From IMG/VR virus record IMGVR_UViG_3300029915_000364: DNA of 13,578 bases; one strand, 5' to 3'. Positions 7,040 to 13,399 of this stretch are shown here, piece after piece; positions within the stretch are counted from its first letter, which is position 1, and each line of letters starts with the position of its first letter. Under the pieces are notes generated by a model. That model had not been told where the DNA came from and did not search any database. It saw only the letters and a program-made list of their open reading frames with translations. The translations under genes were made by a program, and so were the position numbers. Origin of the DNA: a virus.

Positions 7040-7856
7040 GGTACACTCCGGCCCAAATGTTGGCAAACGCCTCCGGGGTCCAGTTACCAACCAAGTCTGA
7101 TACTTGACCGTCTCCAATTTCTACCACCCGAGGCTGGCCGTCGTCGCGAATCGCGATGTCCACGGAGTAGAAGGGAGACGCCACGCGGGTACGAACAGTC
7201 TCAAGCAGGTCGTAAATACCGTTGGTGTCCACCTTTGCCCACTCCCCCGAAACCCCGATAGTCCGTCCTTGGATAACGAAGAAGCGGCGTTCGTCGGTCA
7301 GTTTCTCCACCCGGCGAACACAGATGCCGCCCTCCAACTTGCCACGGAATTTTGTCATGGCATCAAGCAGTGTGAGGACATCTTGCGGTGTCGTCACCGA
7401 TGGATGGTTCTCCAGCTTCAGGGACTTCACATAGTCCTTGATAAAGTAGTGCTCCCACCCCAATGCCTGTAGAGCCAGCACGAGGTTGAACTGCGGGGTG
7501 AAACAGAACTCAGGAAAAACTACAGTATCAGGAGTCAGCCCCGCTATCAGCGGGTACCAGCACGGCAGGTGGTGACAGCGAATGTAGTCCTCCGGGCGAG
7601 TAAACAGCCGCCCACCCATCGTCTTCACCTTGTCTGTCATAGCGCGGTATTCAGCCGAGTTTAGCATCCAGCCACGATACACTACCACAGCACCATCGAA
7701 CCCTCTCGGGTTGTTACTGCAATCTCCCCAGATTCCACCTGCCTCAGTGGAGTACACAGAGTTGGGGTAGCGTTTCAGAGCGGACGCCTGCGGGGCGAAA
7801 TACTCATCCAGCTTTTTCGGGTTCAGCGGGTCAGCCGGGAATATGAAGTGTAGCAT
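7032..7856 (-). CDS. ATP-grasp domain protein (RimK-related / R2K-clade amidoligase, DUF4343-like)
   Basis: ATG at 7856 with GGAGG and AAGGG upstream is preferred over the GTG at 7940, which would overlap the upstream ORF by 31 nt and add a low-complexity N-terminus. The product has AVVVYRGWMLNSAEY near the N-terminus. Its C-terminal RFFVIQGRTIGVSGEW...SPFYSVDIAIRDDGQPRVVEIGDGQVSDL is typical of the ATP-grasp C-terminal subdomain found in phage-associated RimK-like ligases. Confidence 0.75.
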   Translation of the reverse strand: MLHFIFPADPLNPKKLDEYFAPQASALKRYPNSVYSTEAGGIWGDCSNNPRGFDGAVVVYRGWMLNSAEYRAMTDKVKTMGGRLFTRPEDYIRCHHLPCWYPLIAGLTPDTVVFPEFCFTPQFNLVLALQALGWEHYFIKDYVKSLKLENHPSVTTPQDVLTLLDAMTKFRGKLEGGICVRRVEKLTDERRFFVIQGRTIGVSGEWAKVDTNGIYDLLETVRTRVASPFYSVDIAIRDDGQPRVVEIGDGQVSDLVGNWTPEAFANIWAGVYHD

Positions 7857-8280: not shown

Positions 8281-9267
8281 TTACTTACCAGCCTTTGCAG
8301 CCTTCTTGTTGGCCAGTGAAGCCTTCAAAGCGGCCATCAGGTCAACCGTGACCACTGCGGTGGCGTCCTGCTTCTTGACTTCAGGAGCGGCCACGCCAGC
8401 CTTCTTGGCGGTCAGCAGGTTGCGGAAGCGAATCGAGAACTTGTCGTTGTAGTCCGAGGAGACGAACTTGTCAGACATCGCCTCGCCAAGCTGCTTCGCC
8501 AGAGTCTTCTCGTCCTCGCTCAGGACAACCGGGGCAACCTTGTCGAAGATGCGGATTTCGTGTTCGAAGTACACGAAGTGAACCGCCAGACCAACCTTCA
8601 AAGGGCGGATGATGACAGTCTGTTCACGCCCCCTCTGAGCGGTCTGAGCAACAGCCACCTGACCCGTGCTCACCAGCATCTCGCGGAAGACGGCGAGGGC
8701 GCGTTCGACAATCGAACCACCATCGGCTCCGAGGTACTCGGCAGCTTCGAAGTACAGGGGGTCAACTTCCGTCGCCGGAACCAGCTTCTCAACGGTCATG
8801 ACCTTGTCGGCCAGAACCATGCAGCCCTTCTTCTCGTCGTCAGTGATGACGAAAAACTTGCCGTCGTCATCCTTCATGCCCTTCAGGGACTGGGCACGCT
8901 CGACAATCGCCTCGCACGCCTCACACTTCATCGCACCCTGCTTAAGCTGTCCGTACACGGGAGCCTCTTCAGAGGCTTCGTGGTTGCACTGGTGAATCAT
9001 GTTGGTCTTGAACTTCTCGGAGTCCTCAATGACCTTGTAGGTCTTGACGGGGACGGTCAGGCCATTCGCGCCCTCGATGACGACCAGCTTACCCGACCAA
9101 GTCGAACGGCCACAGCCAACCTTCTCGGGGGCGGCGGCGTTCACATCGGCGAACTCAACCTTCGGGTGGAGAAGGTTGTTCAACTTGCTGGAGAGGTCGG
9201 CGACACTAGGCTTCGCGGGAGCCGCGACGGGGGTTTCGGTCTTCGATGTGTTCTTTGCCTTTGCCAT
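8281..9267 (-). CDS. ku: Ku-family DNA end-binding protein (NHEJ Ku homologue) with an N-terminal extension and a Lys-rich C-terminal tail
   Basis: ATG at 9267 with AAGGAGAAACACC upstream. The bacterial Ku core is recognisable: STWSGKLVVIEGANGLTVPVKTY, then KGMKDDDGKFFVITDDE, then EVDPLYFEAAEYLGADGGSIVERALAVFREMLVSTGQVAVAQTAQRGREQTVIIRPLKVGLAVHFVYFEHEIR, then the Lys/Ala tail LMAALKASLANKKAAKAGK as in mycobacterial-type Ku. An extra roughly 50-aa Ala/Pro/Lys-rich N-terminus precedes the core. Confidence 0.85.
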   Translation of the reverse strand: MAKAKNTSKTETPVAAPAKPSVADLSSKLNNLLHPKVEFADVNAAAPEKVGCGRSTWSGKLVVIEGANGLTVPVKTYKVIEDSEKFKTNMIHQCNHEASEEAPVYGQLKQGAMKCEACEAIVERAQSLKGMKDDDGKFFVITDDEKKGCMVLADKVMTVEKLVPATEVDPLYFEAAEYLGADGGSIVERALAVFREMLVSTGQVAVAQTAQRGREQTVIIRPLKVGLAVHFVYFEHEIRIFDKVAPVVLSEDEKTLAKQLGEAMSDKFVSSDYNDKFSIRFRNLLTAKKAGVAAPEVKKQDATAVVTVDLMAALKASLANKKAAKAGK

Positions 9268-9289: not shown

Positions 9290-9322
9290 ACAGTATACCG
9301 GGGAAGTACCAGATTTGTCTAC
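9290..9322 (-). promoter_or_regulatory. Putative phage promoter, copy B of the conserved element
   Basis: Minus strand reads TGTAGACAAATCTGGTACTTCCCCGGTATACTGTAAACATAAGGAGAAACACCAAAATG. It has -35 TAGACA, an 18-nt spacer, -10 TATACT, and the same GGAG..AAACAC leader as copies A and C. Confidence 0.45.
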
Positions 9323-9639
9323 AATTTTAGCTCTTCATCGTGCGTAAACGTAAATTTCCAGCCGCATCGGTCGCAGCGAGAGGAATATCGCACGTAAAAC
9401 GCTATCTGGCCATTGAATTCTTTGTAGATAAGCGTGCCCAGCGTGTAGTCTTCCCGGAGCGTACACTGGTCTTCGGAGCGCAAGTCAGCCCTGTACTTTG
9501 CGGCCTCCGTAAGCTGAGCAAGGTACCGCTCTGGGGTGACTTTTCCGTAGGAAAGGAGAGCCTCCCTGTCCTTTTTATCAGCTTCCTTCTCGTTGTTTAT
9601 TGTGCATCGTGGGCACTGTGCCCACTTACTCGCGCTCAT
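9319..9639 (-). CDS. Zinc-ribbon protein (CPRC...CDRC), 106 aa
   Basis: ATG at 9639 with GGGGGAT upstream. CxxC pairs sit near both termini (C9-P-R-C and C-D-R-C-G-W) with about 80 aa between them. It lies between the rIIB terminator and the Ku promoter. It could be a small DNA-binding or regulatory protein, but I recognise no family. Confidence 0.6.
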   Translation of the reverse strand: MSASKWAQCPRCTINNEKEADKKDREALLSYGKVTPERYLAQLTEAAKYRADLRSEDQCTLREDYTLGTLIYKEFNGQIAFYVRYSSRCDRCGWKFTFTHDEELKL

Positions 9640-9672
9640 AGAATCCCCCTGATTCGATCCTTTGAAGAATTT

Positions 9673-9708
9673 TCAAAATAAACCGGGAGCCCTGTACGGC
9701 TCCCGGTT
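9673..9708 (-). terminator. Rho-independent terminator after the rIIA/rIIB-like gene pair
   Basis: Minus-strand RNA would read AACCGGGAGCCGUACAGGGCUCCCGGUU (11-bp stem, 6-nt loop) followed by UAUUUUG. It lies about 40 nt downstream of the stop at 9746..9748. The flanks are asymmetric, so it is unidirectional for the minus strand. Confidence 0.65.
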
Positions 9709-9745
9709 CGGGCAGGGTAGAAGGAGAATGGACTACCCCGAATTG

Positions 9746-10978
9746 TTAGTAACCCCCGTCGTCTTCCTCGTCACAGTCCTCATCTTCCTCGTACTCATCT
9801 TCCTCGTCGGAGGGCTCGCCCAGATCGACGCGCTCATCTTCCTCCGGGACTGCTGACGCAGGTGTTGGGTAAGCAACCCCGGCAGCCTTAGTCAGAGCGA
9901 TGATTCCTTCGAGATACGAGTCAATCTCGTCCTGTGTGGGGTTTTTCTTGCGTTCGAGGTTGTATGCCTCAGCCGTGGACACGTCCATGGCCTTTGCCAC
10001 CTGCGAAGTGGTCAGCTTAGCCGCCACACGTGCGGGGCGAAGCGGGTTCTCGAACAGCTTGGACTGTTCCACCGGAACCGTCTCGCCGAACTTCGTGAGC
10101 CAACTCTGCAAACGAACCAGTGATGCCTTACGGAATGACTTGGGGTTCAGCTTCTTGTTACGCACCAGACGCTTTACAGCCGGGAGCGAGGTCAAAGCCT
10201 TAATCAGGTCGCGACGTTCCTTGTTAATAGCCAGCACGCCCTTACCCTCCAACTCAGCGTAGCCCTCAGCCGTGAACTCGATTTCGTCCTTGTTACCAAG
10301 TTCTCTCATGACTTCGTAGCGGGTGACACGCATCTTGCCACCGTTGGCCGAGAGGACATCACGCGGGTGAATTTTCACCTCCATGCACTTCGAACCATAC
10401 GTGCCATACTTCTTCGAGCACACGTGGTAGCCTGAGGCGCATTGCGTCCGCCAGTTGGCGTCCACCAGGTTGCGGGAAGTGATGATGATTTCGCCGGGTG
10501 TGTTCAGTACGGTACCCGTGTGGGTATCCGTGTAGTCGTCACGGACGTACTTATACGCCGCGAAGGTACCGTCGTCATAGATCGGCAACTCGTTATCCAT
10601 CAGCCACTCGTAGAACTCAGAGATAGCTTCCGGCTGCGGGTTCTTGTACAGGTTGTCCATGAACTTCAGCAGCGAAGCCACAGGCTGACCGTGGTCGATG
10701 AGTTCAAGCATCCGCTTGGTCAGAGTCGAGTTGACTTCGCGGCCTTTGTATGTCACCAGACCCCTTTCAATCTTGACGTGGCCGTGGCTTTGGTTGGCAA
10801 TCTGCTCCGCCAGCGAGACCAGTTTCGGAATCTTCGCCCACGCCTTTGCCTTCAGGGCAGCGACCACCTGCTTGAATGTCGGGTGGCTGGGAACCAACTG
10901 GAACGAGCGTCCTCTGACGATTACCGATACGAAATCGGGCGTCATGATGTAGGGTACTGCTGCCTGTAGGTTAGACAT
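9746..10978 (-). CDS. rIIB: rIIB-like protein with a C-terminal HTH-like segment and a long acidic tail ending in Tyr
   Basis: The ATG lies in ATGTCTAA and overlaps the TAA stop of the upstream rIIA-like gene by 8 nt, with AAGGAG 10 nt upstream. The core DDGTFAAYKYVRDDYTDTHTGTVLNTPGEIIITSRNLVDANWRTQCASGYHVCSKKYG...VKIHPRDVLS...KMRVTRYEVMREL fits my recollection of the conserved rIIB block. Its position immediately after rIIA supports the call. The C-terminus reads EEDERVDLGEPSDEEDEYEEDEDCDEEDDGGY. Confidence 0.6.
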   Translation of the reverse strand: MSNLQAAVPYIMTPDFVSVIVRGRSFQLVPSHPTFKQVVAALKAKAWAKIPKLVSLAEQIANQSHGHVKIERGLVTYKGREVNSTLTKRMLELIDHGQPVASLLKFMDNLYKNPQPEAISEFYEWLMDNELPIYDDGTFAAYKYVRDDYTDTHTGTVLNTPGEIIITSRNLVDANWRTQCASGYHVCSKKYGTYGSKCMEVKIHPRDVLSANGGKMRVTRYEVMRELGNKDEIEFTAEGYAELEGKGVLAINKERRDLIKALTSLPAVKRLVRNKKLNPKSFRKASLVRLQSWLTKFGETVPVEQSKLFENPLRPARVAAKLTTSQVAKAMDVSTAEAYNLERKKNPTQDEIDSYLEGIIALTKAAGVAYPTPASAVPEEDERVDLGEPSDEEDEYEEDEDCDEEDDGGY

Positions 10979-13379
10979 ATGCGGTCATCTCCTTGATGTT
11001 ATCGTTAATGCTGGACTGTGCTTCACGATTCGCATCTTCCAGCTTGAAGTAGTTGGTTACTACCACCGCTTCCTCTATTGTACCAGCCATCCAGCTAGAA
11101 CGGCCAGTATATTTCATCATCGGGTAGAATTCTTTTACTTCATCCCACTTCTTCCCGAAGTCGATAACCACTCGCTGCGGCATCGTGTACTTATTACGGG
11201 CGGCGGCTACCTGAAGTACGCTCTGCAACGCAGTGCCTTCCGCCTTAGTGCGGCTCTCCTTGGCCTTATTCAATTTGACTACGAACTGCTGTACCGGGCT
11301 CTCTGCGTCCATGGGGTGCTCGGTCATGTAATCGAACACGAAATCCCAACTGGTAGAGAAGTTGCCAATGCAATCCACCATGGTCATGCGCTGTTCACGA
11401 GCCGGGGTCATGTGCTTCTTGACAGCCGCCCAGACCGCTGGCATGTAGGGCTTCCAATCAGCACCTTCAATCAGCTTCGAGTTAGCCTTCAGACCGTAGA
11501 CCGGAACATCCAGAAGGTTCGACTCGCGAACCGAATTGACAAACCTCACGAACTCCCGGGCTTTGTAGAACCCCGTGGACTCGTGGCCGGAGCCACTGCC
11601 ATCCGTAATGACGTAATACTTCATGCCGGGGAGGTCGATGACATCGTTGTCAGCCTTGTCCCAAGCCTTCGCCCAGCCCGCGCTGCCACGGCGGGGGTGG
11701 GGCACTTCGTTCACCAGTACCGAGACGTTGCGGCGTTGGCGGGGGATGGCTACTCCCTTCTCTCGCGGAGTGTCCACAAATTCGCCATAGCGTGCCTTCA
11801 GCTCGGAAGCGAGGGTGACAGGCGGATTGCCAAGCTTCTCCATCATGGTGAGCCCCTGCGACATCACCGTGCTCATGTCCACTGACTTGTTCTGACGATT
11901 GACGCAGTACACCAACGTCTTGCCGCCACGGTCAACCGCGCACTGGAGGAAGTAGCCAATGTACTTATCCGCAGAGACCTTCAGGTCATTGATGACGAAG
12001 GCCACCTTGGGCTCGACTTCCACCCGTACATCGTAGTTCTTGCGGCATGTCGGGTCTTCTGCGATGCGGTCACGCATGTTTTTGACAGACGCGGCGTTGA
12101 AGGAGAACAGTGATTCCTTCTTGGCTCTCTTCTCAGCCCGAAAATTGTAGCTGTACTGAGTGAGCTGAATGCCCTCATAGTCGGATTTGTTGACCACGGC
12201 CATCTCATCGCTCATGGTGAAGTGGCTGTAGTTGCCCAAGAGTAGACCGTTGTTGTAGGCATCGTTGACAATCTTGCCGAGGCTTCCGCCTCGCGAAGTC
12301 AGGTCGTAAATCTGGAGCCGTGCTTCCCAGACAGCAGCGCACTGGTCAATCTTCTTCTTGATTTCCTCCAACATCCCCTCATGAACCCCGTCTAGAGCCT
12401 TCAGGATGTTGCCGACAGTACGTTCGTCCAACTGAATGAACTCGCGGGAAGCGGTAACTTCCAAGTCGCCAATCGGGAGGAAGATATCCAACTCCATCTC
12501 GCTGATACGCCGCTGGTGGGTATTCATGCGGCTGATGTCGATGTCGCCCACATCGTAGGGCACGATGCCCTGAATCGCCCGGAGACCGCTGATGGTGCTG
12601 ACGGTGTTGTCACGCAGACCCCACTTCTCGGTTCTGATGGTGTAAATCTGTTTGTTTATCGAAATTTCTTTGTTGAAAATCGGCAACGGGGAGAAGAACT
12701 CGAACACACTACGTGCCTTGTTCTCAAACTCCCAGATGTCCCCAATCTTTACCGGGAGGGAAATTTCCACCCCATTGGGGGAGTCCGGGGTATCCTCCTT
12801 GCTCTGAAGGACGACCGTGGGGAAGCCATTGTGTACCGCTGCCTGATAGATGCGGGTGACACCCTCGTAGCGGTTGGTGATAGAGAATCCGCCGCCCTTT
12901 TCGTCATAGCAGAAGGGGCTCTTGGAGCCGATGCCCATGGCACCGATGAACTCATTGGAGTCGTTCTTGTCGCTGGCGAAGTAGATGCAGTACAGGCTAA
13001 TGACGGCATCATAGTCGCCAGTGCCGTCGCAGTCGGGGCAGGGGGTATCACCGTGCTGGGTCTCTACAAGACCAACACCATGGCACTGTTTGCAGCCCCC
13101 CTCGATGTACTTCAGGCCAGTGCCGAAGTCATTAAGGCGGAAGGTCGGGTCGAAAGCGGTAGGCAGGTGAATCTCGAAAGGTGTGTCGGCTTTGCCAGCA
13201 GCGACATGAGCGTCCCTGGCGTTGCAAGCCAATTCGCGGAGGATAGCTTCAATCTTGCTATTGTAGATGCCCGACGAAAAGAGCTTGAAAGCCAAAGCAC
13301 TGTTGTTGAACGAGAATGCTCTGGGGCGGGTTAATGCCCCACCAACTTCCATTGCACTACCTGCGGTTCCTAGTTTCAT
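10971..13379 (-). CDS. rIIA: rIIA-like GHKL/Bergerat-fold ATPase (Hsp90/HtpG-like N-terminal ATP-binding motifs) with an inserted CxxCxGxG zinc finger
   Basis: ATG at 13379 with GGAGAG 10 nt upstream is preferred over the TTG at 13397 used by the track, which lacks an SD. The N-terminus closely matches my recollection of T4 rIIA at three points. LAFKLFSSGIYNSKIEAILRELACNARDAH resembles [30 protein letters not shown] (GHKL N-box, E-x3-N-x2-D). AFDPTFRLNDFGTGL resembles LDPRFVCRDFGPGM (G1 box, DxGxG). SNEFIGAMGIGSKSPFCY resembles SNDFIGGFGLGSKSPFSY (G2 box). The region between the G1 and G2 boxes contains GGCKQCHGVGLVETQHGDTPCPDCDGTG. Confidence 0.8.
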   Translation of the reverse strand: MKLGTAGSAMEVGGALTRPRAFSFNNSALAFKLFSSGIYNSKIEAILRELACNARDAHVAAGKADTPFEIHLPTAFDPTFRLNDFGTGLKYIEGGCKQCHGVGLVETQHGDTPCPDCDGTGDYDAVISLYCIYFASDKNDSNEFIGAMGIGSKSPFCYDEKGGGFSITNRYEGVTRIYQAAVHNGFPTVVLQSKEDTPDSPNGVEISLPVKIGDIWEFENKARSVFEFFSPLPIFNKEISINKQIYTIRTEKWGLRDNTVSTISGLRAIQGIVPYDVGDIDISRMNTHQRRISEMELDIFLPIGDLEVTASREFIQLDERTVGNILKALDGVHEGMLEEIKKKIDQCAAVWEARLQIYDLTSRGGSLGKIVNDAYNNGLLLGNYSHFTMSDEMAVVNKSDYEGIQLTQYSYNFRAEKRAKKESLFSFNAASVKNMRDRIAEDPTCRKNYDVRVEVEPKVAFVINDLKVSADKYIGYFLQCAVDRGGKTLVYCVNRQNKSVDMSTVMSQGLTMMEKLGNPPVTLASELKARYGEFVDTPREKGVAIPRQRRNVSVLVNEVPHPRRGSAGWAKAWDKADNDVIDLPGMKYYVITDGSGSGHESTGFYKAREFVRFVNSVRESNLLDVPVYGLKANSKLIEGADWKPYMPAVWAAVKKHMTPAREQRMTMVDCIGNFSTSWDFVFDYMTEHPMDAESPVQQFVVKLNKAKESRTKAEGTALQSVLQVAAARNKYTMPQRVVIDFGKKWDEVKEFYPMMKYTGRSSWMAGTIEEAVVVTNYFKLEDANREAQSSINDNIKEMTAYV

Positions 13380-13399
13380 GTGGTTTCTTCTCTCCAATC

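Follow-up and report, generated by a model that had tools for sequence, protein, structure and literature searches.

An acidic, disordered tail recurs patchily on rIIB proteins of uncultured large phages, with and without a neighbouring R2K.3 ATP-grasp gene

The phage genes rIIA and rIIB have been the subject of genetics since the 1950s. Their products act against RexAB, and bacterial gasdermin systems are set off by rIIB (PMC10312443). We analysed the rIIB-like gene of the IMG/VR virus record IMGVR_UViG_3300029915_000364, a stretch of 13,578 nucleotides (the window), whose product ends in a strongly acidic tail of 31 residues. The protein resembles T4 and T6 rIIB in having a core domain in common and in being encoded immediately downstream of rIIA, with the two genes overlapping. 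In contrast, the core of T6 rIIB (312 amino acids) is C-terminal and the protein is tail-less, ending in EDVTEQFK, whereas the window protein has its core at the N-terminus, with basic helices, a putative helix-turn-helix (HTH) domain, a YPxP strap and the 31-residue acidic tail coming after it. No description of acidic tails on rIIB was found in the literature searched. The window protein is a member of a known family with a known kind of appendage, in a new combination, and the tail is a patchy, recurrent and fast-evolving accessory on the rIIB proteins of uncultured large phages.

Acidic C-terminal tails are well described for SSB (ending in DDDIPF) and for gp2.5 and gp4 of phage T7 (ending in Phe), where they are disordered and rival DNA for basic clefts. 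These tails dock partners by their terminal aromatic residue, mimic nucleic acid and fold onto basic clefts. Ribosomal protein S6 has an acidic C-terminus to which poly-Glu is added by RimK. The rIIB tails resemble those of SSB and the T7 proteins in being disordered, strongly acidic and nearly free of Lys and Arg, with an aromatic end in about half of cases; in the subfamily of the window, the protein that bears the tail also has a DNA-binding-type domain. There is, however, no sequence homology between the two groups, the rIIB tails are longer and hold more interspersed aromatic residues, and a terminal aromatic residue is not universal among them. The carrier is rIIB, as opposed to a single-strand DNA-binding or replisome protein, and the likeness is one of functional class.

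The gene and its tail-coding end are located as follows.
9746..10978, minus strand: whole rIIB gene, 410 amino acids plus stop (translation; profile phrog_609)
9749..9841, minus strand: acidic disordered C-terminal tail, residues 380-410, EDERVDLGEPSDEEDEYEEDEDCDEEDDGGY (translation; charge count; predicted local distance difference test, pLDDT, ~50)
9779..9807, no strand assigned: perfect 15-nt tandem duplication CTCATCTTCCTCGTA, 1.9 copies, within the tail-coding DNA (Tandem Repeats Finder, 100% matches)

The C-terminus of the minus-strand reading frame, AGVAYPTPASAVPEEDERVDLGEPSDEEDEYEEDEDCDEEDDGGY, is followed directly by the TAA stop codon (9746-9748), and codons 380-410 occupy 9749..9841 exactly; the 410-residue translation finishes with GVAYPTPASAVPEEDERVDLGEPSDEEDEYEEDEDCDEEDDGGY. 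Asp and Glu account for 20 of the 31 tail residues, compared with 11.1% of the remaining 379 (binomial P ~2e-12). The tail has a net charge of -19 with a single basic residue, set against +11 for the rest of the protein, and terminates in -DDGGY, the final residue being Tyr. An earlier note, made from the letters of the window alone, had reported an acidic tail of roughly 31 residues ending in Tyr, and translation and the Asp/Glu count bear this out. Its coordinates correspond to the 31 codons, while the string it quoted runs to 32 residues through inclusion of an extra Glu, E379 (9842-9844). The tail is not an assembly artefact, because an independent ENA contig encodes a fragment (P0002) that is 100% identical over its whole 304 amino acids and has the same tail at its end. 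In an AlphaFold model for which 48 homologues were used (mean pLDDT 86.8), residues 1-380 are ordered and the tail, residues 381-410, is disordered with a pLDDT of ~50. The 15-nt duplication suggests that the tail has grown via slippage or duplication.

Tail sequence is not conserved, even at 80% overall identity. The relative P0001, which is 80% identical to the window protein, has a tail that differs in sequence, is equally acidic and ends in EEEEEDEDWD. Length and sequence shift quickly between close relatives, and the final residue varies (D, Y, F, W or E) even among the closest, with S found as well among relatives. Composition, on the other hand, is conserved. Across 25 non-redundant tails, Asp contributes 31% and Glu 28% of residues (~59% together), Tyr, Phe and Trp 13%, and Lys plus Arg less than 1%, with net charges ranging from -7 to -26. 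An aromatic residue comes last in 12 of the 25 tails as compared with 10 of 100 tail-less rIIB proteins (Fisher P = 6e-5), and 15 of the 25 have an aromatic residue among the last three. This pattern appears to be the signature of a disordered region that is selected for its composition and grows by slippage.

The tail is restricted to a part of the rIIB family. No acidic tail was seen in any of the eight cultured-phage rIIB proteins compared (T6, PA5oct, Xoo-sp13, RsoM2USA, GomatiRiver_11, Lacusarx, RXM and RcXuper), and among full-length metagenomic relatives it is present in 15 of 49 and lacking in 34. The alignment check proposed by the earlier note therefore finds the tail to be lineage-specific and not universal. 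Shorter rIIB loci recovered in a metagenome scan (n = 68) yielded one clear acidic tail (L091) and one borderline case (L086); the scan was run with a 12-sequence alignment (A2), as the 48-sequence alignment (A1) held no sufficiently conserved stretch. Of 142 further representatives of the rIIB core, clustered at 50% identity, about 12 have at least 12 Asp/Glu in the last 30 residues, at protein lengths of 271-459 amino acids. In a neighbour-joining tree of the full-length relatives the tailed proteins fall in at least four clades, and tails span several rIIB lengths and architectures, with and without the HTH. Within the lineage that is syntenic for Ku-, PTH2- and MVP-like genes (see below), the tail is kept throughout, at 35-45% rIIA/rIIB identity. 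A scan of viral contigs with the rIIB protein returned 41 pattern matches and no confirmed relatives.

A distant example is provided by the uncultured 595-kb phage record LR756511 (L185), whose rIIB is without the HTH and has the C-terminus DDDEDEDEEEDIDEDDEDFDEDEDEDEDY, the last residues being DEDEDEDY. The nearest cultured relatives of this protein, the PA5oct group at 43% identity, are tail-less. In LR756511 rIIB, a Pro/Ser/Thr-rich linker lies straight between the core domain and the acidic tail. The gene order at this locus (LR756511.1, 11848-14397) is rIIB then rIIA, the opposite of what is seen in the window and in T4-like phages. Tailed rIIB genes are carried as well by JGI 3300075153 (a 413-kb contig), Ga0335085_10000040 (455 kb) and Ga0642623_00018 (328 kb), and ERZ25039512 contig_33667 and ERZ25039587 contig_125371 are tail-less relatives.

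That the tail arose more than once, independently, inside the subfamily of the window was considered, and this idea is weakened by the grouping of the window's rIIB C-terminal module and rIIA with the other tailed clade; the rIIB core, by contrast, groups with tail-less proteins. The window protein has a mosaic look in this respect: core residues 1-240 are closest to the tail-less relatives L004/L010 (51-54% identity), while residues 241-380, the C-terminal module, and the neighbouring rIIA have their closest counterparts in the tailed Ku/MVP lineage (L001/L002/L005; 46-50%).

The body of the protein, up to the tail, divides into four elements.
10259..10969, minus strand: rIIB core domain, residues 4-240 (phrog_609; tblastn to annotated rIIB genes)
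10085..10225, minus strand: basic helical segment, residues 252-298 (model helices; charge count; basic residues kept in the A1 consensus)
9890..10042, minus strand: putative four-helix XRE/lambda-repressor-like HTH, residues 313-363 (model; Foldseek; profile match)
9860..9877, minus strand: conserved V-x-Y-P-x-P strap, VAYPTP, residues 368-373, the last ordered element before the tail (alignment A2; model)

Assignment to rIIB, as the earlier note had proposed, is confirmed by several lines. The core profile phrog_609 matches residues 7-230 at 2.3e-56, all 49 homologues carry a precomputed match to PF26926 (Phage_T4_rIIB), the annotated rIIB proteins of PA5oct-like and Xoo-sp13 jumbo phages are 36-37% identical by tblastn, and the gene adjoins rIIA. 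The core is further supported by tblastn to the annotated rIIB genes of 2829 phage records and by 6903 representative clusters at E<=1e-3. Similarity to canonical rIIB is limited to residues 4-240. In the model, the core leads into the basic helical segment, the four-helix HTH, the VxYPxP strap and the tail, in that order, with residues 241-304 carrying a net charge of approximately +10. The HTH helices span residues 313-319, 324-331, 335-343 and 349-363. Foldseek lists HipB, HigA, C.Esp1396I and SinR as structural neighbours of this domain, at probabilities of 0.97-1.0 but E values of 0.3-0.9, and the profile match to a lambda repressor-like protein is weak (E = 0.017). HTH_3 is precomputed on the homologues P0013, P0015 and P0036, and HTH_3 and HTH_31 occur below threshold in homologues. 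Searches of solved structures by sequence and by fold gave no match for the rIIB core, all matches being to the HTH. The net charge of the HTH region is -1.

In the strap, V368, Y370, P371 and P373 are invariant or nearly so among the 12 sequences of alignment A2, residues 371-380 have a mean pLDDT of 86, and tail-less homologues terminate a few residues past the YPxP. Many rIIB C-termini that otherwise look unrelated share an aromatic-Pro-x-Pro motif, found as AWPFPNK or WPQAP in the short forms (L025-L090). The version in the subfamily of the window is V(S/A)YP(K/R/T)P, which is ordered and packed on the body in the model.

We propose, with moderate confidence and by analogy with SSB and the T7 proteins, that the tail acts as a charge-driven docking or nucleic-acid-mimicking peptide, independent of R2K.3. 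The analogy is drawn because the tail is disordered, polyanionic, free of Lys and Arg and aromatic-ended, and sits on a protein with basic and DNA-binding-type modules. Its target would be a basic surface of the DNA-binding type, on which the aromatic residue at the end of the tail serves as an anchor. Candidate surfaces would be the protein's own basic helical segment or HTH, leading to self-inhibition, as well as rIIA, the adjacent Ku-like protein with its basic tail, or a DNA-binding defence protein of the host. Both the binding function and the partner are thus what we infer from better-known tails. The earlier note had offered a polyanionic DNA mimic as one of its alternatives, which is compatible with, and close to, this proposal. 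Several points weigh against it. The single-chain AlphaFold model shows no docking of the tail onto the body, the HTH is present in some tailed rIIB proteins and missing from others, about half of the tails are without an aromatic last residue (several ending in Asp or Glu), and slippage can create acidic low-complexity runs that last without much specific function.

A serious rival, which we regard as possible though doubtful, is that the tail has no specific partner and is either an entropic bristle, providing solubility and preventing aggregation of a toxic, membrane-associated protein, or a near-neutral expansion by slippage. The perfect tandem duplication in the tail-coding DNA fits such an origin, as do the rapid changes in length and sequence among close relatives and the absence of docking in the model. 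The tail is also patchy, most rIIB proteins (including all eight from cultured phages) doing without it, and expression of rIIB is toxic in E. coli (PMC10312443). However, composition is tightly constrained across independent clades (Lys/Arg below 1%, aromatic residues at 13%), and an aromatic end is five times as frequent as in tail-less rIIB proteins, which neither drift nor a charge bristle would predict. Retention throughout the Ku/MVP lineage, despite its divergence, likewise argues for more than near-neutral persistence.

An intramolecular role, in which the tail is a DNA mimic that inhibits the HTH and gates DNA binding by rIIB, appears improbable. In the window protein the tail begins only 17 residues past the HTH and the body contains the +10 basic helical segment; moreover, all tails of the full-length subfamily follow the HTH module, and the C-terminal module of the window protein groups with the tailed clade. 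The HTH region is, however, not basic, the model shows no contact between tail and HTH, and tails are found on proteins without a detectable HTH (LR756511, L091/P0226 and several representatives of 270-330 amino acids). Because some tailed rIIB proteins are without an HTH, self-inhibition through this domain is unlikely to be general.

The earlier note had likened the tail to that of tubulin and suggested that it might be the substrate of an ATP-grasp ligase encoded nearby. The genes that flank rIIB and bear on this suggestion are the following.
10971..13397, minus strand: rIIA, with an 8-nt overlap with the start of rIIB (phrog_612 at 1e-98)
9672..9709, minus strand: terminator-like hairpin with a 12-bp G+C stem, then UUUAUUUU; 38 nt past the rIIB stop (RNA fold -39 kcal/mol, z = -5.0)
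8281..9267, minus strand: Ku-like gene for a DNA-end-binding protein whose C-terminal tail is basic and rich in Lys/Ala (PF02735 at 2e-20)
7032..7856, minus strand: R2K.3 ATP-grasp gene, 274 amino acids from ATG (PF14243 at 6e-18; ExGD motif)

All genes from rIIB through the MVP-like gene are on the minus strand. Reading 3' from rIIB, the order is a 106-amino-acid Cys-rich open reading frame (ORF), the Ku-like gene, an 81-amino-acid ORF, R2K.3, the PTH2-like gene and the MVP-like gene. R2K.3 is located 1.9 kb from rIIB, past three genes and the terminator-like site. The hairpin looks like the terminator of a rIIA-rIIB operon; it was not listed by a simple promoter/terminator consensus scan.

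The presence of an R2K-type ATP-grasp gene about 2 kb away was correctly recognised by the earlier note, and the gene can be assigned to R2K.3 on the basis of PF14243 (66 bits against a cut-off of 26.3) and the ExGD motif. E246-I-G248-D249 is invariant in alignment A3 together with invariant Arg/Lys residues, indicating that the catalytic motifs are intact. The ExGD motif in the last strand defines family 3 of the R2K clade, and R2K-clade enzymes, which are related to RimK, have been predicted to modify proteins as peptide ligases and likened to the tubulin-modifying tubulin-tyrosine ligases (TTLs) (PMC4431377). A Pfam scan of nine window ORFs shows this to be the sole ATP-grasp protein, with matches to R2K_3 and R2K_2, and no match was found to the TTL family (PF03133) or the RimK family. 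The literature searched contained no experimental ligase activity for any R2K.3/DUF4343 member. R2K.3 has 2092 homologues, many of them bacterial. The window enzyme shares 37-46% identity with those from genomes of Deinococcus, Nostoc, Planctomycetes, Verrucomicrobia and Pseudomonas, and the figure for R2K.3 in related phage loci is similar, at 39-46%. A search of the phage collection by tblastn found no R2K.3 match in any of 50,697 records. In 80 bacterial R2K.3 loci no ORF with a strongly acidic C-terminus was present, nor was there a conserved neighbour, each neighbour being common to at most 5 of the 80. Because the phage enzymes are close to the chromosomal bacterial versions, the target of R2K.3 is more likely to be a conserved cellular component than a phage tail.

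Gene neighbourhoods were compared over 10 kb on each side of rIIB in most contigs, and the comparison concerns R2K and not the further ATP-grasp families that whole genomes may encode. At first sight the comparison favours a link between enzyme and tail. The phage loci with R2K.3 all have a tailed rIIB (6/6: the window, L002, L005, L006, L008 and L180), located 2-8 kb upstream, while R2K is present in none of the 29 tail-less loci having at least 7 kb of downstream sequence (naive Fisher P = 5e-4). In nearly all such loci rIIB is the only strongly acidic-tailed ORF, the milder exceptions being the rIIA C-termini in L002 and L006 and one 130-amino-acid ORF in L022. However, the R2K-positive loci all derive from the one Ku/PTH2/MVP-syntenic lineage, which the window joins by its rIIA, its rIIB C-terminal module and its MVP-like gene, and in which the tail is constant and R2K variable. 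The association is accounted for by the shared ancestry of the R2K-positive loci.

Tail and enzyme are independent in these neighbourhoods. At least eight loci carry a tailed rIIB out of reach of any R2K. The stretch from Ku to MVP lacks R2K in L001, no R2K could be detected in L013, and the tailed L021 and L022 have none within ~10 kb. In the near-identical contigs L015 and L016, an N-terminal R2K.3 remnant of 37 residues (51% identity) lies between Ku and PTH2 (L015 6076-6186, L016 5636-5746), and yet rIIB ends in DDDWDDEEDDF; the ligase gene has apparently decayed in this phage, and the acidic tail has stayed. Tails also occur outside the R2K lineage (L020, L023, L091, P0048 and LR756511). 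A functional coupling of R2K and rIIB beyond shared ancestry is therefore not supported by the loci compared.

The tail itself makes a poor candidate for such an enzyme. Likeness to the alpha-tubulin/TTL pair extends to an acidic disordered tail, a Tyr end in this one protein and an ATP-grasp gene nearby. The tubulin-type EEY end envisaged by the earlier note is not borne out, as the terminus is GGY here and variable elsewhere, with Asp as common as Glu; R2K.3 is without a PF03133 match, and comparative genomics decouples the tail from the enzyme. With regard to RimK and S6, the R2K enzymes are distantly related to RimK-like ATP-grasp ligases (PMC4431377), whereas the window has no RimK-family match, the rIIB tails are without a conserved Glu-Glu end, and the bacterial R2K.3 genes are without a conserved acidic-tailed neighbour. 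The terminator-like hairpin and three genes that part rIIB from R2K point to separate transcription. That R2K.3 adds amino acids to the C-terminus or the Glu side chains of the rIIB tail, in the manner of TTL/TTLL or RimK enzymes, is consequently very unlikely, and the earlier suggestion of a ligase substrate is unsupported, given the tailed loci without R2K and an enzyme that belongs to R2K.3 and not to TTL or RimK. Were it true, an anti-defence protein would bear a tubulin-like tail code encoded by the phage, and lineages that have lost R2K would use longer encoded tails or another ligase elsewhere in their large genomes; for the present lineage, we consider ligation of amino acids to the tail by R2K.3, whether at side chains or at the C-terminus, highly improbable.

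Other features of the neighbourhood were noted. Adjacency of rIIA and rIIB is repeated in related loci wherever both genes were recovered. A regular-expression search located a DnaJ-like CxxCxGxG...CxxC zinc-ribbon insert, CKQCHGVGLVETQHGDTPCPDC, at residues ~102-123 of the window's rIIA, where a weak DnaJ_CXXCXGXG match covers residues 102-129. The insert is also present in L001, L002, L005, L006, L013, L015/L016 and the tail-less L010, and was not found in rIIA of the remaining related loci, some of whose sequences are partial. As a correlate of the tail it was rejected, since it marks one sub-lineage and occurs in tail-less L010 too. The rIIA C-termini of L002 (7468-10011; EALEEETVDAA) and L006 (7491-9983; ETDEVETDEEEEIYA) are mildly acidic, and that of the window is not. 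The 106-amino-acid ORF between rIIB and Ku (9319..9639, minus strand) has two Cys pairs, CPRC and CDRC; neither Pfam nor PHROG gave a match to it, and tblastn found no counterpart in the related loci.

A Ku gene lies 3' of a tailed rIIB in 11 tailed loci of the locus table and in L180-L182, the sole tail-less case being L071; the named Ku loci besides the window are L001, L002, L005, L006, L008, L013, L015, L018, L021, L022 and L180. The neighbouring Ku-like proteins all end in Lys/Ala-rich tails with charges of +1 to +6, opposite to that of the rIIB tail. The PTH2-like peptidyl-tRNA hydrolase gene (6505..6933, minus strand; PF01981 at 1e-5) is directly downstream of R2K. PTH2 homologues occur a few kb from rIIB in L001, L003, L009, L011, L014, L017 and L020-L023, and because these include both tailed and tail-less loci, PTH2 is a conserved neighbour independent of the tail and of R2K.

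The MVP-like gene (3915..6374, minus strand) encodes 819 amino acids with matches to MVP_shoulder (PF11978 at 3.5e-26) and Vault_3 (1e-9). Its matches in the phage collection are confined to LR756500 (462 kb) and LR756501/LR756503 (735 kb), from uncultured huge phages, at ~41% identity over 99% of the length. Across related metagenomic loci it is 55-59% identical, and so better conserved than rIIA or rIIB. No rIIB was found within 18 kb either side of the MVP-like gene in LR756500 and LR756501, and the literature search found no description of MVP homologues in jumbo phages.

The practical value of these observations is modest, as these phages have not been cultured and model phages do not have the tail. 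Where the tail comes after an HTH, its position may be a sign that the binding of DNA, or of a DNA mimic, is regulated. A tail that is recurrent, constrained in composition and often tipped by an aromatic residue is a plausible short linear interaction module, and the tail peptide may offer a handle for finding the partners of rIIB in large uncultured phages.

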